A stretch of 64,000 nucleotides of DNA, taken from assembly GCA_964187785.1 (NCBI GenBank), contig OZ076409.1, positions 35,466,001-35,530,000 on the forward strand, written 5' to 3'. This document shows, piece after piece, positions 1 through 46,747 of the stretch. This stretch comes from Amphiscolops sp. MND2022 (lineage: Eukaryota). A program made the position numbers and the translations under genes. The notes under the pieces were generated by a model. That model did not search any database and was not told the origin of the DNA. It worked only from the letters and a program-made list of their open reading frames with translations. Position 1 is the stretch's first letter. The number at the start of each line of letters is the position of its first letter.

Positions 1-1114
1 ACGTACCTTGCGTCTTGTCCAAGGAAACCTTTTCCGTTCGAAATTGGTTCTCGGCCCCCGCCGGACCGGAGTTCGTCTGCCAATTTCGACACCAGTTTGG
101 ATCTGCCTTTACCGCGTGTGTTTGGTTCTCGTCCCCCGCCAGACGAGAACTTCTTTGCCAATTTTGGCTGACCGAATTGTTCCCTGTAGCTCTTGTGTTC
201 GATGGACGTTGAAAACATATTGCCTGATGATGGTTTCGTCCGCATCGGAAACAACCCTTGACCGCCTTACAAGTCCTTGATTGATGCTCAGCTGACAAAC
301 ACCTAAAGCAGCACCCATTCTGCATCAGAACGGTTTTTCGATCATTAGGTGACTGCACCACCGAACATTTGTGACTGCTGTGGTTTCCTGAGCAGAAGAC
401 ACCATCCTTCTCCTGCACTTTATTGACGAACGACGCAGTTGTGAATTGGTTGCAACTGTACTTGTCCGTCTGACCAGAAGGTTTGTCCTTAGTTGTTGAG
501 AAAGCACACTTTTCTCTAGCTTCAACCTCTTTAGTGAGAAGCTCCAGCAGTTCCCTCAAATCCCAGATTTCTGAAGAAATGAATCGAGTCACTTGTAATT
601 TGATATCTTCCGGAAGTTTCTCCAGCAAATTTGAGATGAGAAGGAAACCGAATGTACTTTGGTCAACTGATAAAGACTGCAAACCTCGGATGATGACCTC
701 AACCTGTCCTAAAAAACCCCTTAACCTCGCCACGTCTCTGCCCTCTGCCACACCGGAAATCTTAACGAGCTTATTCATGAAATTTGCTATCAACATCTGT
801 TTGTCCCCGAATTGTTTTTCCAAAAGCATCCACGCACTGTCGTAGTTTGCACTTATGATGGGCAAACCAGCAATGGTTTCCGCTGCCTTACCTGTCAAGC
901 TTGCCTTCAAGTAGGTAAACTTGTCAATTTTAGACAGTGCTGAATTTTGGTGAACTGCATTTCCAAAAAATTGCGGAAACTCATCCACTCAGTGACTGTT
1001 CCGTCGAATTTTGGCAGTTCAACTTTTAGAAGTTTTACAATGACGCGCTTTGAGAACTTTTTCAAGCTCTTTTTCATCTGTTTCATTTCTTTTTGTTGCT
1101 CTCTGTCCTCTTTG

Positions 1115-15452: not shown

Positions 15453-15983
15453 GTTAGTATCTGAGGTTACTGGTGTTGAATTCACAAGGTAATGTTCACA
15501 TGCTCGCTAAAACGCAGTAAATTTGTTTATGATGACTGTTTATGCAGAAGAATGTGATTGCTCCTTGTTAAATTTCCCTGTGTAATGTTAATGAATTACG
15601 TAGGCCTAATGTGGACGTCAGACTAAACATCTCAATAGAAGTGTTTTTCCAAGAAATACAAAATCGTAAAATAGGCTAGCGGCACAGACAACTTCCATTA
15701 TTTTGCCCATTGTGTGTGCGCGTTTGCGGGATGATGAAACGTTATCCGAGCAGCAAATAGTGTTTCATTTGATTTTCATTCACTATGCGCTTCAGATACC
15801 TTTCATATATTAGATCGCTTCTAAATTAACCCTTTCATCGTCCTATTCGAAGTATACCTTAGCACCGGATAGGATTTGGATTTCATATTTCATATCAAAG
15901 ACTTCAATAAATTCTGGTCTCTTCTAAAAGTCAGATTTTCAATTAGGCATTTATACAAAAAGACATGTCAGTTGCGTTTTCAG

Positions 15984-18900
15984 GACAAATAGGCGGTGAT
16001 CACAAAGTGAGTCTGGGTAGGGGTATCTCAAACCCAGGTTTAGACATAGATGGGGAGTATAATGATGTTCAACTGGAAGCCCAATCGCCCGACTTCGATT
16101 CCAGGAAAGTGTCCACGGATTTGCACGTTGATGCCGATGTTGACTTCAAACCGATCCGACAGTTTGACACCAGGAGGCAATCTTCAGTTGATGTCACCGC
16201 TAATCCAGCCAGAATGTCTTTCAGCTCATCGGCTAACCCTAAACTATCAGTATCAGGAAGACCTCAAATGGATATTGGGGGTTCTGCTGGTCTTGAAGCG
16301 GGAGGTGCTTCACTGGGCACCGATGGAGTCGGCCTTAACACTGGCTCAAGTGTGGAAATTGGAACACCTAGTGCAAACTTTGAAATGGAACAGAGAACTC
16401 CCCAGGTTAAACGTGGTTTCTTGTGCTGTGGTGGAGGTAGAGCCAAAGCACCTAAAGCTGGCATCAAAGGAAATACAAATCTGAACGTTCAGAAATCAGT
16501 GGATACAAACATAGACTTATTATCAGAAAACGACATACACACTGGCAAAGGAAAGTTGTCGTTTGACCCAGATACAGAGCTCACTGTAAAAAGTGCGACA
16601 GGCTTAGAAGCCGTTGGTGAACATAACATGGGCTTTGATATTGATGGAAGTGCCAGTAGTCGTTCAAATTCTTCTGAAAAGAAGGGTGGATTTGGAGTTG
16701 GTTTTGGTATTGGAGGAGGATCGAAAATAGATGCGAATGTTGACCTTGATGCAGATGCGAAGCTGAAAGGCAGAGAGAGATCAATTTCTCCAAAACGCAA
16801 GACAGGCGGATTCGGCGTTGGTCTTGGTGTTGGAGGAGGACCTAACTTAGACGCGGATGTTGATGTTGATGCAGATGCGAAGCTTAAAGGCAGAGATAGA
16901 TCTGTTTCTCCAAAAGGCAAGAAAGGTGGATTCGGCTTTGGTTTTGGTGTTGAAGGAGGACCTAACTTAGACGCGGATGTTGATGTTGATGCAGATGCGA
17001 AGCTTAAAGGCAGAGATAGATCTGTTTCTCCAAAAGGCAAGAAAGGTGGATTCGGCTTTGGTTTTGGTGTTGAAGGAGGACCTAACTTAGACGCGGATGT
17101 TGATGTTGATGCAGATGCGAAGCTTAAAGGCAGAGATAGATCTGTTTCTCCAAAAGGCAAGAAAGGTGGATTCGGCTTTGGTGTTGGTGTTGGAGGAGGA
17201 CCTAACTTAGACGCGGATGTTGACGTTGATGCAGATGCGAAGCTTAAAGGCAAAGACAGATCACTTTCTCCAAAAGACAAGAAAGGTGGATTCGGCGTTA
17301 GTCTTGGTGTTGGGGGAGGACCTAACTTAGATGCGGATGTTGATGTCGATGCAGATGCGAAGCTGAAAGGCAGAGATAGATCAGTTTCTCCAAAAGAAAA
17401 GAAGAAAGGCTTCGGTTTCAAAGTGGGAGGTGGAGGAAGTGCGGATCGAGATGCTCATGGCCCAAAAAGTAGAGGAAGATCTAAATCTCCAAAAGGCAAG
17501 AGGAAAGGTTTTGGTATCAAAATTGGGGGTGGGGGAGGTAGGGCTAAAAATGGAGATGCACATGCTTCCCCTAAGGTTGACAAAAATGGCTTTGGTTTGA
17601 AACTACGAGGAGGGACAAGTAAGGATGACAGTGTCTATGATGCCCCGAGCAGAGACCTGTCGCTATCGTCAAAAAGCGAGAATGATAGCTTGGGTTTTGG
17701 TTTTGCAATAGACGGAGGACCTAAGGCTGACTTTGATGCTGACGTCAAACCGAGGAGCCGATCAACATCTCCCAAAGAAAAGAAGGATGGCTTCGGTTTT
17801 GGTTTTGGTATTGGCGGAGGAGCCGATGCTGATGCCGACGTTGATGCTGACATCAGAAGAAAAAGCCGATCACCATCTCCCAACGGAAAGAAGGGTGGCT
17901 TCGGTTTCGGGTTTGGTATTGGCGGAGAAGCTGATGCCGATGTTGATGCTAACGTTAAAAGGAAAAACCGATCACCATCCCCCAAAGGAAAGAAAGGTGG
18001 CTTCGGTTTTGGGTTCGGTATTGGCGAAGGCGCTGATGCTGACATCAAAAGAAACAGCCGATCACCATCTCCCGAAGGAAAGAAAGGTGGTTTTGGTTTC
18101 GGGTTTGGTATTGGCGGAGAAGCTGATGCCGATGTTGATGCTAACGTTAAAAGGAAAAGCCGATCACCATCCCCCAAAGGAAAGAAAGGTGGCTTCGGTT
18201 TTGGGTTCGGTATTGGCGGAGGAGCTGATGCTGATGCTGACGTCAAAAGAAAACGCCGATCACCATCTCCCAAAGGAAAGAAGGGTGGCTTCGGTTTCGG
18301 GTTTGGTATTGGCGGAGGAGCTGATGCCGATGTTGAAGGTGACGTTAAAAGGAAAAGCCGATCACCATCGCCAAAAGGAAAGAAGGGTGGCTTCGGTTTC
18401 GGGTTTGGTATTGGCGGAGGAGCTGATGCCGATGTTGAAGGTGACGTTAAAAGGAAAAGCCGATCACCATCGCCAAAAGGAAAGAAAGGTGGTTTCGGAT
18501 TCGGGCTCGGGATTGGCGGAGGAGCTGATGCCGATGTTGAAGGTGACGTTAAAAGGAAAAGCCGATCACCATCGCCAAAAGGAAAGAAAGGTGGTTTCGG
18601 ATTCGGGCTCGGGATTGGCGGTGGAGCCGATGTTGATGCCGATGTTGACGCTGATGTCAAAAGGAAAAGCCGATCACCATCCCCCAAAGGAAAGAAAGGT
18701 GGCATCGGTTTTGGGTTCGGTATTGGCGGTGGAGCTGATGCTGATGCTGACGTCAAAAGAAAAAGTCGATCACCATCTCCCAAAGGAAAGAAGGGTGGCT
18801 TCGGTTTCGGGTTTGGTATTGTCGGAGGAGCTGATGCCGATGTTGAAGGTGACGTTAAAAGGAAAAGCCGATCACCATCGCCAAAAGGAAAGAAAGGTGG

Positions 18901-20584
18901 TTTCGGATTCGGGCTCGGGATTGGCGGTGGAGCTGATGCCGATGTTGATGCTGACGTCAAAAGGAAAAGCCGATCACCATCTCCCAAAGGAAAGAAAGGT
19001 GGCATCGGTTTTGGGTTCGGTATTGGCGGTGGAGCTGATGCTGATGCTGACGTCAAAAGAAAAAGTCGATCACCATCTCCCAAAGGAAAAAAGGGTGGCT
19101 TCGGTTTCGGGTTTGGTATTGGCGGAGGAGCTGATGCCGATGTTGAAGGTGACGTTAAAAGGAAAAGCCGATCACCATCGCCAAAAGGAAAGAAAGGTGG
19201 TTTCGGATTCGGGCTCGGGATTGGCGGTGGAGCTGATGCCGATGTTGATGCTGACGTCAAAAGGAAAAGCCGATCACCATCTCCCAAAGGAAAGAAAGGT
19301 GGCATCGGTTTTGGGTTCGGTATTGGCGGTGGAGCTGATGCTGATGCTGACGTCAAAAGAAAAAGTCGATCACCATCTCCCAAAGGAAAAAAGGGTGGCT
19401 TCGGTTTCGGGTTTGGTATTGGCGGAGGAGCTGATGCCGATGTTGAAGGTGACGTTAAAAGGAAAAGCCGATCACCATCGCCAAAAGGAAAGAAAGGTGG
19501 TTTCGGATTCGGGCTCGGGATTGGCGGTGGAGCTGATGCCGATGTTGATGCTGACGTCAAAAGGAAAAGCCGATCACCATCTCCCAAAGGAAAGAAAGGT
19601 GGCTTCGGTTTCGGGTTCGGTATTGGCGGAGGAGCTGATGCCGATGTTGATGCTGATGTTAAAAAGAAAAGCCGATCACCATCGCCAAAAGGAAAGAAAG
19701 GTGGTTTCGGATTCGGGTTCGGTATCGGCGGAGGAGCTGATGCCGATGTTGACATCAAAAGGAAAAGCCGATCACCATCTCCTAGAGGAAAGGAAGGTGG
19801 CTCCGGTTTTGGTTTCGGTATTGGCGGAGGTGCTGTTACTGATTTTGAAGGCCCTTGTGCAAAGAACCATAACGGTGTAGTAACTTCGTTTAAACACGAC
19901 AATTCATTGAAGACGTCAGTAGATCTCGAAGCGGACATTGCCGTAAGCAAAGAAGCAACATTGGAATCTGAGCCAGTGAAACCAGCGAAACCCGAGTACA
20001 AGATAGTAATTGACCCAGTCACTGGGGCGAAGAAAAAGTTGCGACGAAAACCAAAAGATGGAAAAGCAGCTGCAAAAACAGATGGACCCAAGGATTATGA
20101 AATTAAAGTTGATCCAGTTACTGGTAAAAAATATAAAGTTAGAAAACGTGATCCTTCTGGTGACAAAAAAGGAAAAGCAAAGGTGGATTTAGAAAGTTCA
20201 TCAAATAGGGCCGATCTCAAAGCACCAAATGCTAGTCTGAGCAACAATCTCCATGTAGTTGCTCCAGTAACAGCACAGAATGGAATGTTGGAAGGTGAAA
20301 TAGACTTACGAGATGGAATGCATGGCCAGAGTTCTGACAACCAAAAAGTTAATTTGGAATCGGGTGGAGCAATTGGTGTTTCTTTAAATTCTGAAGGGAG
20401 CAATTATTCCTCACACAAAGAATTGAATTTGATTGAGAAGTCATTAGAAGAACTTCGATCTGCCAAAAACTTTTCCATGAGTAACAACCAATCACATTCC
20501 CGAACCCCCTCCCCGAAACCAAGGAAAACCAAATTGAAAGTGGCAATGAGAGCCAGCAGCAGTTCTGAAGACTCGGATGAATGA
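15984..20584 (+). CDS. Giant last exon (4.6 kb) of the AHNAK/periaxin-like gene: low-complexity tandem-repeat domain
   Basis: Acceptor gttttcag| at 15983 gives a phase-1 entry into the 1539-codon ORF 15965-20584. The spliced CDS is 5127 nt = 1708 aa plus stop. Confidence 0.9.
16675..17420 (+). repeat. Coding tandem repeat, 120-bp/40-aa unit (KKGGFGFGFGVEGGPNLDADVDVDADAKLKGRDRSVSPKG), ~6 copies
   Basis: The sequences starting at 16861, 16981 and 17101 are identical at a 120-nt period. Confidence 0.95.
17750..19830 (+). repeat. Coding tandem repeat, ~30-36-aa unit (RKSRSPSPKGKKGGFGFGFGIGGGADADVEGDVK), ~20 copies, with a 300-bp higher-order period
   Basis: Units are visible in the ORF translation; 18661-18960, 18961-19260 and 19261-19560 are near-identical. 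Confidence 0.95.
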
Positions 20585-22758: not shown

Positions 22759-22900
22759 CCTCCTCCTCCTCCTCCTCCTCCTCCTCCTCCTCCCTCCTCC
22801 CTCCTCCCTCCTCCCTCCTCCCTCCTCCCTCCTCCCTCCTCCAAACTCCCTCCTCCCTCCTCCCTCCTCCCCTCCTCCCTCCTCCCCTCCTCCCTCCTCC
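22759..22900. repeat. Pure pyrimidine microsatellite (CCT)n/(CCTCCCT)n
   Basis: ~140 nt containing almost only C and T. Confidence 0.95.
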
Positions 22901-23169
22901 AGTAACTTGAATAAACTAGCTTATCAAAAACTATAAATCTGTCACTTTTTCGGTCTTTAAAAGATAGCGTCGACAAGAAATTGATGTAATAAATTTTGAT
23001 TACTACCTATGATATAACTTTCCGAAATTTTTCTGCGTTGTACAGTTAGTCGCAAGATGCGTAAACGTTTGATATCTTTGGCATTGAAATCCTGTTTGTT
23101 AGCCAATTGTAGGTGATTTCATTCTTGATTGTTTGAAAACTTTTTTGAAAAGCTTGATGGAATACAATT

Positions 23170-24840
23170 TGTTGGCGCCTCGAAAATAACTTGAAATCAG
23201 CTATTCGAAAAATACCCTAAAATAGCCCTTAATTGGTGGCTGTAAAAGATTGAGTTTTGGGAATCACACTCTAGGATGGTCGGCAACCGACATATTTTTG
23301 GCCAACTAAACCATCTAGGGCAAAAAACCGGAAATCGAAAGCAAAAATTTGAAAAATATTTTTTTTCTGGGGCAAAAACAGAGATTTCTTCTAAAATATT
23401 ACAAATTTGGTAATTTATCGTCCTGCTTGTGTATTTAACCTGTCAAGTGGTCATATTTGGTTATATCTAGTCCAAGCGGAAGCCGGTAGAGCATTTGTAA
23501 TCTAATAGAAGCTTTGGTGGGCAAATAACAAATATATTAAAGGACCACAAAATCGTGTAAAAGTTTTCTTCAGATGTTGATATACCAATATCTTTGTATA
23601 CTTTATCGCCTCGAAAGTGGGTAGTTTGTTAACTTTATGTATCATTATAGAACATTTATGGTGTCCTCATATTTGATTGTAAACATGACTTTTATGTAGT
23701 TCCTTGTAGGTCCAAATAGACTCCAATCTTGCTAAAACCGACGAGAAAGACGGGAGAGAACTAAGTATCTTACTGAGCAGTTGATCTTTAACTTCGATTC
23801 GAATACCTCAAGAAAGCATATTTTGGAAATTGATCGTTCAAGATTTTACTAATTTCGAGCATAGATTGGATTTTATTTCGACCAATTGATTTTTGCCTAG
23901 TAAAAACAAGTTGATTCGAGATTCCATCCTCAATTAAAGTTATTGCTTCAATCTTGTTGTTTTATTCGTTTCATCGTCATCGGATCGACAGGTTTTGTTA
24001 TAGTTCTTTTGAACGTGAAAGTAGATCTACTTGAAACAATTTATTTCTCAGAGGTTAGAGAATTTCATGTTTTATAGAAAACACAAGTAACAGTCAAAGA
24101 CGCAGTAATTGCTTCACCGACTACGAACGCTTGTTTGTTGTGCACAATAGTTTTTCTAACCAAAGAAATAGATGCGATATCATCTATTTAAATCGTCGAA
24201 ATCTCGAAATTTGCTAATTGCTGACAGTCAAGGTAAAGAGCTTGATATAGCCAATTTCAACGTCTTATCATTACCAGGAGCTTGTGTAAGACACGTTTAC
24301 ATTTTCATCCCGAAAAAGGACAGTTACGATACTGTTGTTCTTTTCATTGGAGGTAACGATCTTTTTTGTAATAACGCACCTTCCACAAAATCTGCTGAAG
24401 ATTTAACGCAGGAATTATCAGACCTTGCTAATTTCCTACTTACCAAAATTAAAAGTGTTTTTGTTCTTGGCATACCATTACGCCATTCTCTACCTCAGAG
24501 ATCCAAAACCGTGAACGCATTATTGGCTTTGCGCAAAGAAGGCTGGAAATTCAGAGGCATTTCTAGACAGATATATAGTGACAAACACTTGAAAAGGGAT
24601 AACGTCCATTTGAGTTCTAAAGCTTTGAGTGGAATTGGTTATATCCTAAAATCTAAAATTCTTTACAAACGATTCTGTCCTGAATTGGAAGAAGAAGGAT
24701 ATTCGCATATTATTGAGTGCAAAGGAACCTGCAGGTGTCTTTCCTGGACAAAGTATTAGAAGAGATTGTTCCATAGTGAAGACGAGGGCCGTCGTAAAGC
24801 TTGGTAAGTGTATTTGTTATCATACCTTGCAGACGTAAAA
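23170..24840 (+). repeat. 5' LTR (1671 bp) of the BEL/Pao element
   Basis: TGTTGGCGCC...GCAGACGTAAAA; direct repeat of 31479-33148. Confidence 0.95.
24172..24759 (+). CDS. SGNH/GDSL hydrolase (esterase)-like protein, 195 aa, encoded inside the 5' LTR
   Basis: Four SGNH blocks in order: LIADSQG (block I Ser), LPGA (II Gly), IGGNDL (III Asn), DNVHL (V Asp/His). Intact from ATG to stop. Confidence 0.85.
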   Translation: MRYHLFKSSKSRNLLIADSQGKELDIANFNVLSLPGACVRHVYIFIPKKDSYDTVVLFIGGNDLFCNNAPSTKSAEDLTQELSDLANFLLTKIKSVFVLGIPLRHSLPQRSKTVNALLALRKEGWKFRGISRQIYSDKHLKRDNVHLSSKALSGIGYILKSKILYKRFCPELEEEGYSHIIECKGTCRCLSWTKY

Positions 24841-24843
24841 TTT

Positions 24844-24861
24844 TGGTGCCGCGACCCGGGA
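24844..24861 (+). promoter_or_regulatory. Primer-binding site, tRNA-His-like (TGGTGCCGCGACCCGGGA)
   Basis: 3 nt after the LTR end; resembles the complement of the tRNA-His 3' end (TGGTGCCGTGACTCGGA). Confidence 0.8.
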
Positions 24862-24910
24862 AGGCACTGTGCGGGATTCGGTCATAATTTGATTTGCAAA
24901 AGAAAATAGA

Positions 24911-27900
24911 ATGGCAGAGCCGATTGTACGCAATTTGTGGGACCCCACATATATGACTTCAACAAAAAACGGACATGAAAGAAAGGTCTTTTTTACTGAC
25001 TGCTTGAAAAATTCTTCCACAATGAAGGAGTGGATAGAACACGAAAAACGCGTCTCAGATATGATTTTAATTCTCAGAAACCTAGACGCGGATTTCCAGG
25101 ATCTCCATGCTCAGGATCCAAATGTTTGGGTTGACGTTGGTAAGTTCTTTTTAACTTACTCAACTTCAAAGGATAAGTTGCGCAAAGAGTTCGAAATGTA
25201 TCTCCCCATGCTGAAAGATAAGTTTCAAGGCAGCCGTAAGGAGATCTTGTACAAATTGGAGTACGAACTTGAAAACTATTTTGAGAATTGGAGCAAAAAG
25301 ACCTCATTTCTTGTGAGCGTGAGGTGGCTTCCATCGCGCCTGAAAAATGAAAATGACCTAATGAAGTATATGAAACTCTGCGATCAGTTTTATGACGCTA
25401 AACGAATAATTGAAGCAGAAAAAATGACAATCAGTAAACTAATCGAGCAAGGAGCGAGGTCGAGTCATGTGAAACTGGCTATCCAGAAACTTCAAGATAA
25501 CAAAGCGATTTTAGATAAAAGTCTCGAAAGTAGACGCAATTGTCTCAAGCCTGATGCTTTGTCAACTCTATCACACGCCGAAAAAATTGTCACAGAAATG
25601 AACTCTATCGTTCAACAGGCAATGACTGACGCTCTGAACTATTTTGATAGCTGCAATATAGCAGCAAATGATCCATTGGGAAACATAGAAACACCTGAAG
25701 TGTCTGGGTTTGAAAGTTCGAAGATATCAAAAGACGATGAGAACCGTTCTCATGCCTTGGAAAAATCCAAGGCGAATGAAACACTTGACAAAGGATTGAA
25801 ATTGCTTAACGAGGCAAATCAATCAACACTAATCCTCAAAATTAACGACCGGTTTGATAACCCATCTTTTCAACCTCAATCAGCTACTGTTGGATCCCAG
25901 AAAAGATTTTCTTTAGTAGACTACTCCCCTACAAGAACATTAGCTATGAGTGAGCCAGCAAAAAAGGCTTGTTCAAAGATAGGCTCCAATGCTTCGAAAA
26001 TGAGTGAACGAAGATGGTTGGAGATACAAGCTGAACTGATGGATCAAAAATTACAAATGGAAATAGAAAAAAGAACGTGAGTTGGAACTAGAGAAAACTC
26101 GTAGAGAAATGGAAAGAGATTTGGAAGAATTGGAGAAAAAACAAGAAATGGAAAGAAGAGAAGTCGAAATGCAGAAGAGGCTCCAAGAATTGCAAGCAGA
26201 ATCGGAAATTGCTGAATTGAGGAGCAAGAAAGCTTTTGAAAAGCACCAATTGCGATTGCAAATAGAGGAGGCTGAAGGATCAATTCGTGCTTCTTCAATA
26301 TGTCCTAGCTTGATGTCTCTCACTCTGGAGGAGGACAAAAACAGTGACATTAAAAGTTGGTTAGACCAAGGTGTTGATGACTTAGATAAGTGCTTCTCGC
26401 AACCGAAGGAATCTAGCAGAGAAGTAAAAAATAAAGGTGAGTCAAGTAAACCGCCTAATACATTTGACCGCAAAAACCTATTATCGCGAACCCAAGGCAG
26501 AGGTACAAGTAAGTCACCCCAGAGAAAAAACACTGGAATTACTTTTCCGAAACAAACGCCCTGCTTCAGCAAGGCAATGAGAAACCAAAGCCTAAATATG
26601 ATTTCGCGAAACCCTCATTCAAAATAGAAAGTGATTTTCCTTCCTTCACAACAGCAGTACCTGTACAACCACCGGTACATTTTGTTCAAACAAGCTTACC
26701 TAAATTGAAATTATCTGAATTTCATGGAGACCCATTGGAATGGCCAGAATGGTCCAGTTTGTTCACAGCTACCATCCATAATGCGCCAATTGATGACAAT
26801 GCAAAAATGAGTCATTTGAAAACACTTGTTAAAGGCAAGGCCAAGGCGGCAATTGCGGGTCTCGGATACTCAGGAGTCATGTATAGTGCAGCGTGGAATG
26901 CTTTGGTTACTAATTTCGGACGACCACAAACAATTGTCAATGCTCAGATGAAGCAAATTCATTTGAGTCCGTTCATCAAGTCGCATGATTCAGCGGCTAT
27001 TATAAAGTACGCACAGTTGATTACTACATGCGTTAATGTGTTGAAACAGTTCGGATTCACTGGAGATTTGTACTCTGAATCCGTCTTGAACTCAGCGTTG
27101 AGGAAGTTACCACCTGAATTGAAAACCAAGTGGTTTTTTCTTGCGAAGAGCAAAGGCTACACTACCACATTGATCTTTGTAAATTTAGCGAATGGCTGAA
27201 CGAAGTTGCTTATGTTCACGATGAAATGACAGTGCAATTCAAGTCTCAATCAGAGACAAAAGGCTACGCTAGTACGGAGAACGTGAAAACCTCAACATTT
27301 GCTGCTAATGAGCAGAGCAAATCAACACCTGCATCAACAAAGCAATGTCCATTGAAGGATGGCGACCATAAAATCTGGATGTGTACGAAGTTCAAACAAC
27401 AAGGTGTTAATGAGAGATACGAAACACTGAAGAAATATAAACTTTGTTTCTGTTGTCTAAATTCACATTTGATGAAGGACTGCAAGTCGGACAGAGTTTG
27501 TGGAGTAAATGGATGCACCAAGAAACACAACAAGCTGTTGCATTCGGATTCTCCTAGAACCGAAAAAGATAAGAAGTCGGAGGAACCCTTGTCTCAAAAC
27601 AGGGCCGGCGGTTCTTCAATGCTCTCAACAGGTAGCAGTGGTTTCTTACAGTTGATACCAATTTCAATTGGAAATGAGAAACGAAGCGCTGAAACGATAG
27701 CTCTTTGTGATACTGGATCCACGGTATCATTTATGGACAAAACTTTGGTCAACCTTTTGAAGCTGAAAGGTAAAGAATCCGTGATGTCGGTAGCTGGAAT
27801 TCATGGGCTATCTGACATGAAGACTGAAATTGTTACCGCCAGAATTGGTCCAAGTGAAACAGATACTGCGGGAGAAGAACTGGCCTTCTGCAGTCACCCA

Positions 27901-30900
27901 AACTTGAATGTCGGTGACAAAATCTACGATTTTACAAAATTGAAAGAAATTTATTCCTATTTGAAAAATTTGCCGGATATAAAGGTCTCGATGGCTGATG
28001 TCAAGGTCATTCTTGGTCAAGATGCGTATCACCTGATCAGACCTCTTGAATATAAGTCAGGTGATAGGAAAGAGCCTTGGGCGGTCAAAACTTCTTTGGG
28101 ATGGACAGTGAGTGGAGCATTACCCCAAGCAGAAACAAACTGTTTGGCAGCAACGTGTAACCTCTCCGTGTCTTCGGATCCTTTAGCGGATCAAATGAAG
28201 AAATGGTGGGACATGGAGACATACGCGTCTGTGTGTGATGTCTCAGGACGTTCTAAGGAAGAAAAGAGAGCCCAGGCAATCTTCGAAAAAACTACCATAC
28301 ATAACGGCGAACGTTATGAAGTAGGACTCCTCTGGGCCGATGACAACCCTAACTTGCCGAACAATTATTATTCTGCTTACCAACAGTTTCTGTCAATGGA
28401 GAGAAGATTAAGCAAGGATCTAGAGTTGAAAGAAGCTTACAAAGCTACCATTGAGAAAGACTTAGAAAATCATTTTGTACGAAAACTGGAACAAGAACAA
28501 GTTGTGAGTACAGAAAATGACATGCAATGGTATTTACCTCATCATCCGGTCAAGCACCCACACAAACCAGGCAAGGTCAGAAGAGTTTGTAATGCAGCTT
28601 CAAAGTTTAAAGGCGTTTCCTTGAATGACAAACTTTTAAGCGGACCTGATTTGTTGCGAAACTTGGTTGGAATTGTTTTCAGGTTTAGGGAACACCAAAT
28701 AGCTATTACCGCCGATATTGAGTCCATGTTTTTGCAAGTAGCAGTTCCGAAAGAGGAATGGAAAGTACTTCGTTTCCTATGGCGTGATAGTCCTGAGGAC
28801 AGCATCGGAATCTTCGAGTACAACAGACACGTGTTTGGGGCAAAAAGCTCTCCAACTTGTGCGAACTACGGATTCCAACAGGGAGGAAGAGACAACAAAG
28901 TCGATTTTCCTTCAGCAGCATCGACCATAGAAAGAAACTTCTACATGGACGATTTAGTGAAAAGTGTTGATAGCCCTCAGGCAGCTATTACCTGTTACCA
29001 AGAGTTGGTAGAGACTCTCAAACGTATTGGATTCACATTGAAGAAGTGGGCTAGCAACAGCCCGGAAGTTTTGGAAATTATCCCAGTAGAAGATCGACTA
29101 GAAGCGAACGAATTCACGCTTAATGCTGAATCATCTGCCATTCTAGGTCTGGAGTGGATAATCGATAGAGATTGTCTACAAGTATGTAGAGGACCTAACA
29201 AAGAATGTCCACAAGACATAACTCAACGAGTAGTGTTATCCTTTGTTTCCTCAGTTTTTGATCCCATGGGAATCTTTGCACCTTTCACTATGCGGATGAG
29301 AATGCTTTTGAAAAGTATCTGGATTCGCTTTGGCCAATCATGGGATGAAAAAATTGCGGATGATGATGAACAGGTATTCCTAGATTGGGTGACAGAAATG
29401 CAAACAATTAAAAACACCTCACTTCCTGAAACTTATTTCTCTGATAACCCCAAAAACATTCAACTGCACATCTTCAGTGATGCGTCTCTAGAAGCCATGT
29501 GCATCGTCGCTTATTTTCGAGCAGAAGTCAATGATGGAGTCGAAGTCTCTTTTGTTTTGGGCAAATTTAGAATAGCTCCCATCAAACAACTGTCTATACT
29601 TCGTCTAGAGCTGCAAGCAGCAGTGTATTCAGTCAGATTGAGAACCTTGATTGTTCAAGAACATGATTTACGGATTGACAGCGTTACTCATTGGACTGAT
29701 TCAGTTACTGTGCTTCAATGGTTACACTCAGCTGACAAAAAACAAAATGTTTTTGTAGCTAACAGAGCAGCTGAGATATTGGAAAACTCCACAATTGACG
29801 AGTGGAAGCACGTTAAAGGTGAAATGAATCCATCTGATATTGGGACGCGTGGAATTTCTATAGAGAAATTGACTGAAAGTGATTGGTTAGCTGGACCAAT
29901 TTGGCTCAAAGACCATCCTGACGATTGGCCTTCGTCTCTGCAACCAATTAACTTGGTGCCTGATGACCATGCTGCAGTTGCAGTAATTGCGAACACAAGC
30001 ATGATTCAGAAGCCAATAGTTGATTGGAGCAGGTTTAGCAGTTTTTCTAAATGTGTGCGAGTTATTGCATTTTGCTTACGTTTGAAGTTCAAGAGTCAAT
30101 CTAAGGTATTACTTCCATGTGAACTGCAGCGAGCGGAAGAAAAGATTCTGAAACTAATCCAACGAGAAACCTTTCCTGAAGTGTATGATGGGAAGCAAAT
30201 GTTTGGTAAGACAAGCAAAGGTGGAAACTTGGCAAAATTTTCTCCATTTTTCGATGAATGCGGTATGATTCGAATAAGTGGTCGCATCAAACATGCAAAT
30301 TTGAGCTTCCAACAGCGACATCCAATTCTTTTATCCACAAAACACGATATGTTTAGTGTAATGTTACGTGATTTACATCTGGAACACAACCATGAAGGAG
30401 TAGAGTATGTTAGAAGCGTAATACAACAGAAGTTCTGGATTTTGGGATTACGAAATGCTTTGAGTAGCAATTGTGTTTACTGTCGCAAATTACGTGCGCA
30501 GATAAAATCTCCTCTCATGGCCGATTTACCTGCCGAGAGGCTCGATTATCAGTCATATCCCTTTACCCACGTTGGAATGGATTATTTCGGTCCATTCGAA
30601 GTTAAATTGTTACGACGATCCATGAAACGATGGTGCTGTTTGTTTACATGTTTAACTACCAGAGCAGTGCATATCGAAGTGGTTCGAAGTCTCGACACAG
30701 ATTCTTGCTTGGTAGCTATCAACAGATTTATCGCCAGACGTGGCAAGCCAACAACCATCATAAGTGACAATGGTACTAACTTTGTTGGATCCGCGAGAGA
30801 GTTGAAAGAGTACATCAACTCGTGGAATCACGATCAAATTACATCAGAGTTGGCTCAAAAGCATATTGCATGGAAATTTAACCCTCCTGGGGCACCTCAT

Positions 30901-31503
30901 TTTGGGGGTGTTTGGGAACGGTTGGTCAGAAGTTGCAAGATAGCTATGATGGCAATTCTGGGAAATCGATCTCTGACTGATGAATCTTTGACTACAACCA
31001 TGTGCTTGGTTGAACAAACATTGAATGCACGTCCTATTACCCCAGCAAGTGATGATCCTGCTGATTTGGAGGCCCTTACGCCTAATCATTTTATTCTGGG
31101 TCGTGCGAATATTTGTATACCCTTTATCCCCAATGCTGAAGTTTATTCCAATCATCGCAAGATGTTTCGGTCGTGTCAGGCTTATGCTGATATGATTTGG
31201 AAACGATGGGTTGCAGAATACCTACCCCAAACCCATGTCAGAAACCAATGGAGTAAACAAGAAGCCAATGTTGAAGTTGGCAACTTAGTTTGGTTGGTGG
31301 ATAACAATGTGAAAAGGTCTCATTACAAGATGGCACGAATTCAAGAAATTTATCCAGCAAAAGATGGTGTAGTGAGATCAGTGCTTATCAAAACTCATGA
31401 CGGTACCTTCAAACGACCTGTAGTAAAGTTGGCGCCAGTCTTCAATGAGCGTTTTCAGTCTGAAAACGGGGCCGCCATTGTTGGCGCCTCGAAAATAACT
31501 TGA
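24911..31503 (+). pseudogene. BEL/Pao gag-pol polyprotein, interrupted by three frameshifts (~26075, ~26550-26700, ~27165)
   Basis: Gag LPKLKLSEFHGDPLEWPEW with three Cys/His knuckles; protease LCDTGS; RT FYMDDL; RNase H FSDAS; integrase H..H/C..C plus MDYFGP, SDNGTNF and WERLV. The pieces are ORFs 24911-26080, 26082-26627, 26705-27199 and 27130-31503. Confidence 0.95.
31462..31478 (+). promoter_or_regulatory. Polypurine-tract-like site of the BEL element
   Basis: gaaaacggggccgccat lies immediately before the TG of the 3' LTR. Confidence 0.65.
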
Positions 31504-33148
31504 AATCAGCTATTCGAAAAATACCCTAAAATAGTCCTTAATTGGTGGCTGTAAAAGATTGAGTTTTGGGAATCACACTCTAGGATGGTCGGCAACCGAC
31601 ATATTTTTGGCCAACTAAACCATCTAGGGCAAAAAACCGGAAATCGAAGACAAAAATTTGAAAAATATTTTTTTCTGGGGCAAAATCAGAGATTTCTTCT
31701 AATATATTACAAATTTGGTAATTTATCGTCCTGCTTGTGTATTTAACCTGTCAAGTGGTCATATTTGGTTATATCTAGTCCAAGCGGAAGCCGGTAGAGC
31801 ATTTGTAATCTAATAGAAGCTTTGGTGGGCAAATAACAAATATATTAAAGGACCACAAAATCGTGTAAATGTATGCTTCAGATGTTGATATACCAATATC
31901 TTTATATACTTTATCGCCTCGAAAGTGGGTAGTTTGTTAACTTTATGTATCATTATAGAACATTTATGGTGTCCTCATATTTGATTGTAAACATGACTTT
32001 TATGTAGTTCCTTGTAGGTCCAAATAGACTCCAATCTTGCTAAAACCGACGAGAAAGACGGGAGAGAACTAAGTATCTTACTGAGCAGTTGATCTTTAAC
32101 TTCGATTCGAATACCTCAAGAAAGCATATTTTGGAAATTGATCGTTCAAGATTTTACTAATTTCGAGCATAGATTGGATTTTATTTCGACCAATTGATTA
32201 TTGCCTAGTAAAAACAAGTTGATTCGAGATTCCATCCTCAATTAAAGTTATTGCTTCAATCTTGTTGTTTTATTCGTTTCATCGTCATCGGATCGACAGG
32301 TTTTGTTATAGTTCTTTTGAACGTGAAAGTAGATCTACTTGAAACAATTTATTTCTCAGAGGTTAGAGAATTTCATGTTTTATAGAAAACACAAGTAACA
32401 GTCAAAGACGCAGTAATTGCTTCACCGACTACGAACGCTTGTTTGTTGTGCACAATAGTTTTTCTAACCAAAGAAATAGATGCGATATCATCTATTTAAA
32501 TCGTCGAAATCTCGAAATTTGCTAATTGCTGACAGTCAAGGTAAAGAGCTTGATATAGCCAATTTCAACGTCTTATCATTACCAGGAGCTTGTGTAAGAC
32601 ACGTTTACAATTTCATCCCGAAAAAGGACAGTTACGATACTGTTGTTCTTTTCATTGGAGGTAACGATCTTTTTTGTAATAACGCTCCTTCCACAAAATC
32701 TGCTGAAGATTTAACGCAGGAATTATCAGACCTTGCTAATTTCCTACTTACCAAAATTAAAAGTGTTTTTGTTCTTGGCATACCATTACGCCATTCTCTA
32801 CCTCAGAGATCCAAAACCGTGAACGCATTATTGGCTTTGTGCAAAGAAGGCTGGAAATTCAGAGGCATTTCTAGACAGATATATAGTGACAAACACTTGA
32901 AAAGGGATAACGTCCATTTGAGTTCTAAAGCTTTGAGTGGAATTGGTTATATCCTAAAATCTAAAATTCTTTACAAACGATTCTGTCCTGAATTGGAAGA
33001 AGAAGGATATTCGCATATTATTGAGTGCAAAGGAACCTGCAGGTGTCTTTCCTGGACAAAGTATTAGAAGAGATTGTTCCATAGTGAAGACGAGGGCCGT
33101 CGTAAAGCTTGGTAAGTGTATTTGTTATCATACCTTGCAGACGCAAAA
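31479..33148 (+). repeat. 3' LTR (1670 bp) of the BEL/Pao element
   Basis: Direct repeat of 23170-24840, differing by roughly 14 substitutions and one T indel by eye. Confidence 0.95.
32480..33067 (+). CDS. SGNH/GDSL hydrolase-like protein, 195 aa, copy in the 3' LTR
   Basis: Same ORF as 24172-24759 with two amino-acid differences (I/N, R/C); all four SGNH blocks are intact. Confidence 0.85.
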   Translation: MRYHLFKSSKSRNLLIADSQGKELDIANFNVLSLPGACVRHVYNFIPKKDSYDTVVLFIGGNDLFCNNAPSTKSAEDLTQELSDLANFLLTKIKSVFVLGIPLRHSLPQRSKTVNALLALCKEGWKFRGISRQIYSDKHLKRDNVHLSSKALSGIGYILKSKILYKRFCPELEEEGYSHIIECKGTCRCLSWTKY

Positions 33149-43559: not shown

Positions 43560-46500
43560 TAAGGACCGATATTGTGAGATCGGTAATTTGAAAACTATCG
43601 CTGATCCCGAAGCTTACATGATACGGTTACGTTTTATTGCTGGATTACAAAATTCCGAAAACAAATTAAAAGTGTTGGAACATCTTCAACAAAACCCACA
43701 CGCTACAATAGACATTTTGTTGGTTATTCAGCAGCGTGAACAAACTGTACAATTCGTGAACAATCAGAACGAACCGAATGAAACAATTTCATTTGCCCGG
43801 AACGGTCAATTACGAAAGAAGACAACCGGAAATGGCAAAATTTCAACCGGCTTCCACAACAAAGTTCAAGAATGCTCGAAATGCGGAACGAAGCATGAAC
43901 CAAGAAGTTGTCCGGCCTTCGGCAGAACATGCAACAACTGGAAGAAGCCGAACCATTTAGCAAAAGTGTGTCGGGTGAAAAAACAAACAAATCATTTTGT
44001 TGGAAAAGAAGCCAATTTCGAAGAAAACCATGGCAGTACCTCCGATTATTCGTATTTTTTGGGCATACCGACTATATCAAGAATGGTACAATGGAGAAAA
44101 TCAAAGTGAATGGTAAAGAAATACCAATGATGAAAGACACTGGAGCATCACTGACGCTGCTTTCAAAGAAGCTGTGGAAGCAGATTGGACAACCGAAACT
44201 TGAAGAAAAGAACACGGGAATTGAAACAGATGACAAACATAAAATGAAATATTTCGGTGCTTTCTTCAGTGTTTTAGAATAACAAAGAGCTTAATGTAAA
44301 CATTGCTGTTGTTGATGCTGATAGAAATTTTGGTTTGTTGGGACGTGATATAATAACTAATAGCAAAGAGTCCATTGAACGGTGCTTCAAAGCAGAAGTA
44401 TCCGAAAAGTTACCAACAGTGAAAGGTGCTATAGCTTCCATTAAAATGAAACCCGATGCTAAACCAATGTTTTGCGCGGCACGGAAGGTACCGTTGCAAC
44501 TTGAACGGAAAGGTCAATAAAACCATTGATGAATTACTGTTGTTGGGAATTCTTAAACCGGTTGGGTGTAGATAATTGCTCCCCGGTTGTGTGTACAGTG
44601 AATACAACCCGAGGCCTATTTCGAGTCACCCGGTTACAACAAGGATTGAAAAATACAGCGGCTATTTTCCAGCAAGCTATCGAAGAGGTGCTCAAAGGAC
44701 TGGATGGTTGCGTCGCATATCAGGACGATATCTTGTTGTTCGGTGTACCCGAGGCCGAACTCCGGAAAAGATACAATGCGGTCAAAGAACGGCTGGCAGC
44801 AAAGAACTTCACTGTGAATGAAGACAAGTGCGTATCATTCTGGACAACGTTATACTTTTTGGGCTACGAAATTTCATCGGAAGGAGTAAAGCCGGAACAG
44901 AAGCACGTTCAAAAACTTCTTCAACTGCAGCCACCGAAGGATGTCAAAGAAGTTGAAGCTTTTATCGGACTTATCAACTACTTTGGGCGAATGATTCCAA
45001 ACTATGCGGCCAAGACGCAGTGTATCCATGAACTCCGGCAAAAAGATAAACCTTTCAAGTGGACCAATGAATGTCAAAGGGCGTTCCAGTCACTTGTAGA
45101 TGAGCTTACAAGTGAACCATTGGTACAACCGTCCTCATTGGATAATGAAGTGACTCTCACAACGAATGCATCCGAAAAAACCATTGGTGGTGTATTGACG
45201 CAGAATGATCACCCGGTTATCTACATATCTCGTAACTTGACATCGACCGAACAGAAATACAGCAACATTGAACGGGAAGCGCTTGCTGTAGTGTTCGCAG
45301 TGACACGACTACGACAATTTGTATTGGGGAGGAAGTTCACTTTGAGAACAGATCACAAGCCACTACAATTTATCTTCAATCCGAGCAACCAGATACCGAA
45401 AGTTGTATCAGCGAGACTTGCTGATGGGCAAAAACACTGATGGCCTATGACTATGATGTACAATACACTCCCGGTCAAGATATTGGTCATGCGGATGCAA
45501 TGTCACGCTTACAGTTCAAAGACGATGAAGACGACTCAGTTGCGGTAGCAATGGCTACATTCGAGAAACCCGTGATTGATGTCTACAGGTTACGGAAAGA
45601 GATGATGAACAGAATCCGAAATGGAAATTGGAAAAACTGTACCAAGATGGAGAAATCTTTCATGAATGTTTCAAAAGCATCAACAGTACAAAATGACATG
45701 ATATATAATGGATCGAGAGTTTTTATACCAATTACATGCCGGAAACAAGTGATTGAAAAATTTCACGACGTCCATCAAGGAATCAGTGCTTTGGAAATCT
45801 TGGTGAAAAATAATGCGTGGTGGCCGTTTATGGACAACGATATCGAACAATTTGTCAAAAACTGTTCCGAATGTAGCAAAAACCGACCGAGACTGACTGA
45901 TTCTACTGACAAATGGAAAGAATGCGCTCCATGGGAAAGACTGCATATGGACTGGCTTTATGAAGCAGAACACGGTAACATTCTGATCATCGCTGATGCT
46001 CATGGGTCCGGTTGGCTGGAAGCTTTCTTGTGCACGGACCGATCAACGCGGAACGTGGTTAGATGTCTCCGAACAATCTTTTCTCGGTTTGGAATACCAT
46101 ATACGGTTGTGTCCGATAACGGAAAGGAGTTTGTATCCAAAGACCTGAAAGACTGGTTGGCAGCACAAGGATGCAAAAAGATTGACACACCTATGTATTC
46201 ACCGAGAAGCAATGGACTTGCCGAGAGAGCTATTCAAACATTGAAAAGAAGCCTGAAATTTTACAATAAAGACATCGGTTGTTCACTGACTACTTACATT
46301 AATAAAATTTTGTTCAGTCATCGAAATTCTTCAAATGCTAGAGGTGACACTCCTGCCAAATTACTACTTGGAAAAAACTTGAGAAACCCTGTTGTTGGAT
46401 TTTATGAAGTTGGTGAAAAAGTGATGTACAAACCCACTTCAAACCATGAGCCGAAAGAATTGACATACATTATCCGGAAAGGACGAAACACGGCCTTGCT

Positions 46501-46747
46501 TCATGACAACAACCGAACAATTTTGGCTAGTGACGGACAAATCGCACCGCTACCCTCATCAAGCATTGTGAAAGTAGAACCTCAACCAAACATTGGGCAT
46601 GATGCTATTCAAGATCCAGTCACCCCGAAGACTAGTAACGCTGATAACTTGAGCCCGGTGTTGACCGACGAACATACCGCAGTAGCCAAATCTAGACCGA
46701 AACGATTACGAACCCAAACCCAGAAATATCAATCCGGATTCGCATGA
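43560..46747 (+). pseudogene. Ty3/gypsy gag-pol, frameshifted, with a deletion in RT
   Basis: Gag knuckles CSKCGTKH...C and C..WKKPNHLAKVC; protease KDTGAS; RT AYQDDIL; RNase H YSNIEREALAVV and TDHKPL; integrase H...C..C plus LHMDW, SDNGKEF and SNGLAER. Confidence 0.92.

Follow-up and report, generated by a model that had tools for sequence, protein, structure and literature searches.

How does an enzyme gene come to lie within the long terminal repeats (LTRs) of a retrotransposon, and does it serve the element or its host? The question is posed by a 64,000-nucleotide stretch of DNA from Amphiscolops sp. MND2022 (contig OZ076409.1, positions 35,466,001 to 35,530,000; hereafter the window), in which each LTR of a BEL/Pao element holds an open reading frame (ORF) for a small SGNH-type esterase. 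SGNH accessory modules are already known from retroelements; what is new here, and both real and well supported, is the position in the LTR together with the set of elements that carry the gene. The ORF would be a working accessory gene of the retrotransposon, drawn from a small family of retroelement esterases. Its place in the LTR is one positional variant of an esterase module shared with other elements of the same genome, a circumstance that the first-pass annotation of this DNA had overlooked.

An esterase gene in both LTRs of a BEL/Pao element

Self-alignment and Pfam domains delimit a 9979-bp element at window 23170-33148, with the following features (lengths in nucleotides, nt, base pairs, bp, or amino acids, aa).

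23165..23169 (+), 5' target-site duplication CAATT; the same 5 bases recur after the 3' LTR
23170..24840 (+), 5' LTR, 1671 bp, TGTTGG...GTAAAA, 99.1% identical to the 3' LTR
24172..24759 (+), esterase ORF, 195 aa, 5' LTR copy; SGNH hydrolase with Ser19, Gly36, Asn62, Asp143, His146 and a Cys183/187/189 tail
24844..24861 (+), primer-binding site TGGTGCCGCGACCCGGGA, starting with TGG, 3 nt past the 5' LTR
24911..27199 (+), polyprotein N-terminal extension and gag (DUF1759), in three frame pieces: 24911-26080, 26109-26627 and 26807-27199
27226..31503 (+), pol ORF, 1425 aa: protease, reverse transcriptase (RT), Pao Peptidase_A17, integrase and DUF5641; enters the 3' LTR by 25 nt
31462..31471 (+), polypurine tract GAAAACGGGG, within the last pol codons, 7 nt ahead of the 3' LTR
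31479..33148 (+), 3' LTR, 1671 bp, direct repeat found by self-alignment
32480..33067 (+), esterase ORF, 195 aa, 3' LTR copy; runs from ATG to stop and differs from the 5' copy at 2 residues
33149..33153 (+), 3' target-site duplication CAATT, matching the 5' flank

The two LTRs are separated by 14 mismatches and one single-base indel; they start with TG and end with AAAA rather than CA. The element is assigned to BEL/Pao because pol matches Peptidase_A17 (expectation value, E, 1.2e-38), DUF5641 (E 1.5e-24), RVT_1 and rve, and because the ORF at 26807-27199 matches DUF1759 (E 7.4e-12); the order expected of BEL/Pao, gag followed by protease (PR), RT and integrase (IN), is present. This identity had been proposed in the first-pass annotation, as had the two LTRs of about 1.67 kb each with an open 195-aa ORF at 24172-24759 and 32480-33067, and both are confirmed. 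The annotation was also right that gag-pol of this copy is frameshifted. Three frame changes, near 26.07, 26.55 and 27.16 kb, appear when the region is laid against the intact polyprotein of a related family (C, described below), a single uninterrupted 2226-aa gag-pol ORF that runs from the primer-binding site into the 3' LTR. The family C polyprotein matches the window in three pieces lying in two frames, and the interval from the first piece to the second can be read through in the third frame alone. The window element belongs to family A, and at all three sites its length departs from that of two further copies, L043 and L044; these have gag-pol breaks of their own elsewhere, and an intact gag-pol was found in none of the three family A copies examined.

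The encoded protein

The residues expected of an SGNH hydrolase are read directly from the ORF: ADSQ (block I, with the Ser), LPGA (block II, Gly), GGND (block III, Asn) and DNVH (block V, Asp-x-x-His). In an alignment of the window esterase with 20 relatives, C183, C187, C189, G61 and G176 are invariant, and D18, G36, N62, D143 and H146 are conserved in at least 90% of the sequences. Block V reads D-x-V-H across this alignment. Ten sequences from 6 element contexts likewise keep all four blocks and the Cys tail. Thus the ADS, PGA, GGND and DNVH blocks and the C-terminal C-x3-C-x-C tail that had been noticed in the window copy are features of the family.

Sequence databases place the protein among relatives that are almost all without names (97 in a search with the window esterase). 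Matches of single sequences to Pfam are modest, at E 6.4e-4 to 3.6e-3 for PF00657 and 2.1e-3 to 5e-3 for PF13472; among the 21 aligned members, 13 match PF13472 at E<=0.01 (best 6.7e-7) and 10 match PF00657. The window copies stay under the Pfam gathering cut-offs for both Lipase_GDSL (17.9-20.4 against 23.6 bits) and Lipase_GDSL_2 (17.8-19 against 32.9 bits), which counts against the assignment. A search of PDB sequences with the single window protein gave no match, and one with the family profile placed the best GDSL entries at E 0.49-0.97, below unrelated proteins at chance level.

Structure prediction points to the SGNH clan. An AlphaFold2 model built from the family alignment (predicted local distance difference test, pLDDT, 87.2; predicted template-modelling score, pTM, 0.87) has the three-layer alpha/beta/alpha fold with a parallel sheet. 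Foldseek returned 59 PDB chains at E<=1e-3, led by the platelet-activating factor (PAF) acetylhydrolase Ib alpha chain 1vyh_A (E 1.9e-6); the top matches listed are SGNH-type esterases and acylhydrolases, including sialate O-acetylesterase and thioesterase I/TesA. VIA-align superposed 154 residues on the sialate O-acetylesterase 7pzg with Z 16.6 and a root-mean-square deviation (rmsd) of 2.0 A, and gave Z 15.8 against the PAF acetylhydrolase (PAF-AH) 1wab. By predicted fold and by motifs, the LTR ORF encodes an SGNH hydrolase, in agreement with the fold that had been anticipated for it. PAF acetylhydrolase Ib alpha and the bacterial sialate O-acetylesterases have the same fold and catalytic layout and are likewise small proteins of cytosolic type, of about 200 residues; the window enzyme differs in being only 18-20% identical to them and in adding a Cys/His tail.

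The family appears to consist of short proteins. A profile search of 1.84 billion representatives found 554 clusters at E<=0.001, 196 at E<=1e-10 and 59 at E<=1e-30, and the best 150 relatives are all of 61-320 aa; no fused or longer form was seen among proteins of 343-2000 aa, which is weak evidence. The first 12 residues of the window esterase, read from the sequence, are polar and basic, and the catalytic Ser is residue 19. The protein is read as a cytosolic, stand-alone enzyme because it has no hydrophobic N-terminus and its nucleophile lies at residue 19; these same features speak against the env-like, extracellular role that had been suggested for it.

Genomic copies and selection

A six-frame search of the 1.07-Gb assembly gave 151 esterase matches among 1222 first-look candidates, and many of these form pairs on one strand, 7.8-8.4 kb apart. 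For the 30 best matches (80-100% identity) the LTR was mapped together with its flanks, and in every one the ORF lies within an LTR; the arrangement is therefore not due to chance. The primer-binding site follows the LTR in 15 of the 30, the end of pol precedes it in 13, and one copy each has both (L029) or neither (L028). The 15 include L027, where a degenerate primer-binding site, seen by eye only, excludes a solo LTR; the flanks of L028 do not match as a clean duplication. The LTR of L029, with the end of pol before it and a primer-binding site after it, suggests either a tandem pair of elements with a common LTR or a recombinant. Genome-wide, the sequence that joins LTR end and primer-binding site has 97 exact matches, and its reversed control has none.

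Selection was gauged by pairwise Nei-Gojobori estimates of synonymous and non-synonymous divergence (dS, dN; pS, pN as uncorrected proportions) over a 588-nt alignment, with no ancestral or consensus sequences and with pairs that are not mutually independent; the two LTRs of one element served as the neutral control. In 11 such same-element pairs pooled pN/pS is 1.09 (22 synonymous and 87 non-synonymous differences). Within sublineage A1, with one LTR per element (55 pairs), dS is 0.059, dN 0.024 and pN/pS 0.42, and between A1 and a second sublineage, A2 (44 pairs), dS is 0.815, dN 0.067, pooled pN/pS 0.129 and median dN/dS 0.081. Strong constraint on the esterase is seen along lineages that transpose, and inserted copies decay in a neutral manner; the selection is on the element rather than the host. 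The proposal of an accessory gene under purifying selection thus withstands the dN/dS check (about 0.08-0.13 for A1 against A2, at dS 0.8), and the pattern argues against a role at the level of the host or of the solo LTR.

Such a role had been imagined in the form of a gene-dispersal module left behind in solo LTRs. The LTR would then be a self-contained cassette with its own esterase promoter and terminator, and every LTR, solo ones included, an expression unit for host benefit or gene dispersal. That the ORF is free of stops in 19 of the 30 best copies could be taken in its favor, as could the conservation of a block just upstream of the ATG; but 19 open frames are also what a 588-bp ORF would retain at 1-4% neutral divergence, by rough estimate. 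The pN/pS of 1.09 between LTRs of one element indicates neutral decay after insertion, purifying selection is seen only between transposing lineages, and internal sequence is missing on both sides, with neither primer-binding site nor pol end, in only one of the 30 matches. The cassette for dispersal is therefore improbable, and the claim is not supported.

The same esterase in other retroelements

One copy was fetched from each of six more distant match groups (the letters are our own labels), and the gene recurs in quite different settings.

Group B, BEL/Pao; LTR about 1660 bp; esterase in the LTR; copy degraded
Group C, BEL/Pao; LTR 1274 bp, 99.84% identical; esterase in the LTR, ending 57 nt before the LTR end; gag-pol intact
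Group E, BEL/Pao; LTR 258 bp, 100% identical; esterase internal, directly after a single 1746-aa gag-pol ORF and before the polypurine tract
Group G, BEL/Pao; LTR 264 bp; esterase internal, between primer-binding site and gag
Group F, Ty3/Gypsy (PR-RT-RNaseH-IN); LTR about 145 bp; esterase the first ORF, its ATG 25 nt past the 5' LTR
Group H, Ty1/Copia (IN before RVT_2); LTR 136 bp; esterase the first ORF, 71 nt past the LTR, beyond the primer-binding site
Group D, CR1-like long interspersed nuclear element (LINE); no LTR; esterase the first ORF; PHD finger, endonuclease and RT (Exo_endo_phos, RVT_1) encoded by the ORFs after it

The copies used were L031 with L032 (CR1-like LINE), L039 (Gypsy), L041 (Copia) and L033 with L034 and L042 with L040 (BEL/Pao), and further open copies of each distant group appear in the six-frame search. 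Families B, C and E have polypurine tracts comparable to that of the window element ahead of their 3' LTRs. In three LTR elements, G1 (BEL/Pao), F1 (Gypsy) and H1 (Copia), the primer-binding site is followed by the esterase as first ORF, and gag comes later. The position typical of rotifer elements, between pol and the 3' LTR, is that of family E and not of the window element, nor does the window esterase lie in ORF1 of a non-LTR element: it sits in a BEL/Pao LTR.

In all of these contexts the esterase is a stand-alone protein of 188-211 aa with the same blocks and Cys tail, at 35-53% mutual identity. Its catalytic residues are kept in all ten sequences compared across contexts, bar an Asp to Ser change beside the nucleophile in one LINE copy. 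The BEL/Pao pols of families A, E and G are themselves only 30-37% identical to one another, and those of A and C 61%. Because the similarity of the esterases is this high across LINE, Copia, Gypsy and BEL/Pao, the gene must, to judge from the sequences, have moved between element classes.

The window esterase is 47% identical to that of the CR1-like LINE and has the same Cys tail, which might be taken to mean that the LTR ORF is a passenger, a captured LINE fragment with no present function that is open by chance in young copies. This is very improbable. A dN/dS of 0.08-0.13 at dS 0.8 contradicts it, the catalytic residues persist across the ten sequences save for the LINE substitution, and open frames are maintained in families only 46-53% identical.

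Exchange of the gene between related families

Movement on a shorter scale is recorded in the A2 LTR, which was compared (L020/L021 and L024-L026) with family B (L037 and L038) and with window 23170-24840. This LTR is a mosaic: positions 1 to about 1000 and about 1550-1676 are like B, at up to 92-100% identity, whereas positions from about 1050 to 1500, which make up most of the ORF, are like A1 (82-93% identity, against 49-75% to B). Since the breakpoints bracket the ORF, the esterase is, as the alignments read, exchanged as a unit between related families, and by the same token the cassette is apparently still being swapped between them. The mosaic was also considered as a marker of the R region, and set aside because the breakpoints flank the ORF and not the whole stretch to the primer-binding site.

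Position of the gene in the LTR

In an LTR, the stretch from transcription start to primer-binding site is R plus U5, and that from polypurine tract to start is U3. The question of which part holds the esterase turns on three regions around the ORF.

23170..24084 (+), fast-evolving upstream part (LTR 1-915), candidate U3 and promoter; about 40% identity to A2, in which it is B-family-like; 4-5% pairwise difference among 11 A1 elements
24085..24171 (+), conserved block upstream of the ATG (LTR 916-1002, 87 nt), possible start-site or splice region; diversity of 0.021, the minimum for the LTR; 64-66% identity to A2
24760..24840 (+), LTR tail, 81 nt; conserved core with splice-donor-like GGTAAGT at 24803-24809 and CCTTGCAG at the very end

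The pre-ATG block has a core, AGTCAAAGAYGCAGTAATTGCTTCACCGAC, common to A1, A2 and B. Exact matches to the tail motif number 81 in the genome, and the reversed control has none. In family C a short duplicate of the ORF start (M-R-Y-H, with a stop after 8 codons) lies some 45-55 nt upstream of the real ATG (L035, about 1570-1625).

Families A, B and C have one LTR order, a fast-evolving 0.6-1 kb, the conserved block, the ORF, a tail of 57-81 nt and then the primer-binding site, and the sole difference from G, F and H is the side of the ORF on which the primer-binding site lies. The ORF is inside the LTR in A, B and C because that site lies 57-81 nt downstream of it; LTR boundaries can come to enclose a gene merely through where the primer-binding site is located. 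Synonymous differences between A1 and A2 are spread over the entire ORF, reaching 0.26-0.32 of degenerate third positions in its last third. No promoter is visibly embedded in the 3' end of the ORF, since synonymous sites there are not specially conserved, and the upstream part of the LTR is fast-evolving, as U3 regions are, which also speaks against a promoter inside the ORF. In light of the LTR layout, the esterase-before-gag order of three other LTR families and the unconstrained synonymous sites, a start site upstream of the ORF is favored: the esterase gene probably lies in R/U5 and forms the cistron closest to the 5' end of the genomic RNA.

On this reading the promoter would lie in the fast-evolving first 0.6-1 kb of the LTR. 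The stretch from start to primer-binding site would be copied into strong-stop cDNA, so that the ORF would belong to the LTR and be duplicated in each round of replication. The esterase would be the 5'-proximal cistron of the full-length RNA, in a position like that of LINE ORF1, and gag-pol might be reached by splicing out the ORF or by re-initiation.

The R/U5 placement has to contend with several observations. AATAAA is absent from all A, B and C LTRs examined (window 23170-24840, L035 and L037), whereas families E and G, with their short LTRs, have one copy each near the LTR end. Translation of gag-pol would be impeded by a preceding ORF of 195 codons unless that ORF were spliced out or bypassed. 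A BEL/Pao lineage, E1, carries the esterase after pol, and the contexts F1, G1, H1, D1 and E1 were each seen in one genomic copy. Finally, the strong splice-donor-like GGTAAGT past the ORF would also fit a leader exon joined to an acceptor that precedes the esterase copy of the 3' LTR.

Some of these points fit a placement in U3, after the manner of the mouse mammary tumour virus (MMTV) sag gene. Transcription would then start in the last 57-81 nt of the LTR, the 5' ORF copy would be silent and the esterase would be made from the 3' LTR copy, probably by way of a subgenomic mRNA whose splice would join the GGTAAGT donor of the tail with an acceptor in the pre-ATG block. The donor is conserved directly ahead of the primer-binding site, and the block is conserved with pyrimidine-rich motifs ending in AG. 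An origin of this arrangement is conceivable because the E1 esterase follows pol directly: a polypurine tract moved upstream would turn such an ORF into U3. The hindrance that an upstream ORF of 195 codons would pose to gag translation also speaks for this reading. Yet a simple shift from an E-like ancestor gives the opposite order, for the ORF stands at the primer-binding-site end, 0.6-1 kb from pol. Family C would have to fit R and U5 into at most 57 nt, the core promoter would sit in coding sequence whose 3'-end synonymous sites are not specially conserved, and the esterase is 5' of gag in three other LTR families. The U3 placement is judged unlikely, though it is the main rival.

Whole ORFs within LTRs, present twice per provirus, are known in retroviruses, in sag of MMTV and in others, and some lie in U3. 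The window gene resembles sag in being an entire protein-coding ORF within an LTR. Sag, however, is a U3 gene for a host-directed superantigen, whereas the window gene encodes an enzyme and its adjacency to the primer-binding site points to R/U5; the two have no sequence relation.

A further possibility is that the ORF lies inside a leader intron. A GTAATT motif found within the conserved block would be compatible with this, as would CCTTGCAG at the end of the LTR. Derivative LTRs without the ORF, in which the conserved upstream block would lie no more than 60 nt from the primer-binding site, gave no match, which is weak evidence against an intron.

To return to R/U5, this placement and the sharing of the gene may be joined in one account. 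The esterase gene would be part of R/U5, carried in strong-stop cDNA and read as the first cistron; BEL/Pao, Gypsy and Copia elements, having traded one cassette with a CR1-like LINE, would share an 'ORF1-first' plan like that of LINEs. The chances of the account holding as a whole are, in our estimation, about even. If it is true, the R/U5 esterase would be, to our knowledge, the first protein-coding gene on the U5 side of an LTR.

Possible function

The closest guide to function is the esterase of the LINE ZfL2-1, for which PMC3905857 reports hydrolytic activity and binding to liposomes and to negatively charged phospholipids; membrane targeting is the proposal of its authors. By analogy, the window enzyme may bind or modify membrane lipids and so aid assembly or trafficking of the particle or ribonucleoprotein (RNP). 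It would be a cytosolic enzyme directed at lipid or acetyl esters, serving the assembly or trafficking of the particle or RNP of its element. The His/Cys tail, again by analogy, would probably be a metal-binding contact module.

That five element types of one genome contain the same small esterase, strongly constrained by purifying selection and usually ahead of gag, argues for a general service to retrotransposition, one independent of the integration and capsid machinery. LINE, Copia, Gypsy and three BEL/Pao layouts provide a natural comparative series for that service.

Relation to known systems

SGNH esterases have already been described in LINE ORF1, in rotifer LTR elements, in Penelope-like Terminons and in Ngaro elements. 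The esterase (ES) domain in ORF1 of CR1/L2-type non-LTR retrotransposons was reportedly described by Kapitonov and Jurka in 2003.

The ES domain of LINE ORF1 (ZfL2-1 ORF1p, PDB 4c1b) shares with the window esterase the SGNH fold and motifs and a position ahead of the replication genes (PMC3905857). It is a domain of a coiled-coil ORF1p, whereas the window esterase is a separate 195-aa protein in an LTR. The ZfL2-1 esterase is not among the 50 VIA-align matches listed.

Rotifer Vesta LTR elements have a GDSL esterase as ORF3, shared with Athena/Terminon elements (PMC5408684). As described there, Vesta ORF3 resembles the genes found here in being an SGNH/GDSL accessory ORF with intact catalytic residues, carried by LTR elements and common to unrelated classes of retroelement. 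The differences are in carrier and place: Vesta is Gypsy-like with the ORF after pol, whereas the carriers here are BEL/Pao, Copia, Gypsy and a CR1-like LINE, with the ORF for the most part ahead of gag and, in a single clade, within the LTR.

Ngaro retrotransposons, which use a tyrosine recombinase, contain an SGNH hydrolase ORF of unproven function (PMC9210276). They too are retroelements with an extra SGNH ORF; the Ngaro ORF follows the recombinase, in an element with split direct repeats, unlike the arrangement in the window.

In the literature searched, no BEL/Pao or Copia element is described as carrying an esterase, and no retrotransposon LTR as containing an enzyme gene; Repbase and Dfam, which lay outside the search, may well hold such a consensus. 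Literature on LTR-encoded ORFs likewise gave no enzyme gene in a retrotransposon LTR, and surveys of transposable elements were without mention of esterases. The first-pass statement that no SGNH esterase is known inside a BEL/Pao LTR accords with that literature.

The polyprotein extension and the neighborhood

The polyproteins of families A and C begin with an additional N-terminal region about 600 aa long, in which E, K, Q, L and R abound (window 24911-26627; L035 2270-4100), which is only 29% identical between the two families. It matched no Pfam family and gave Atlas scores below 0.8, and no similarity was seen to the N-termini of families E and G. Derivation from the PHD-containing ORF of the LINE was considered and rejected, no similarity between the two being found.

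Elsewhere in the window, a 1545-aa open frame at 15947-20584 is built from two kinds of tandem repeat, one of 102 bp in about 21 copies and one of 120 bp in 6 copies; it matched no Pfam family, has a GC content of about 50% with strong GC skew, and could be a repetitive structural gene or a satellite. Pieces of other retroelements lie at 5-988 (-), where a BEL/Pao gag fragment (DUF1759, E 1.4e-27) occupies the window start, and at 44505-46744 (+), where there is a Gypsy RT-RNaseH-integrase fragment. A (CCTCCTC)n microsatellite of about 20 copies, at 22762-22900, lies 270 bp upstream of the insertion site of the esterase-bearing element.

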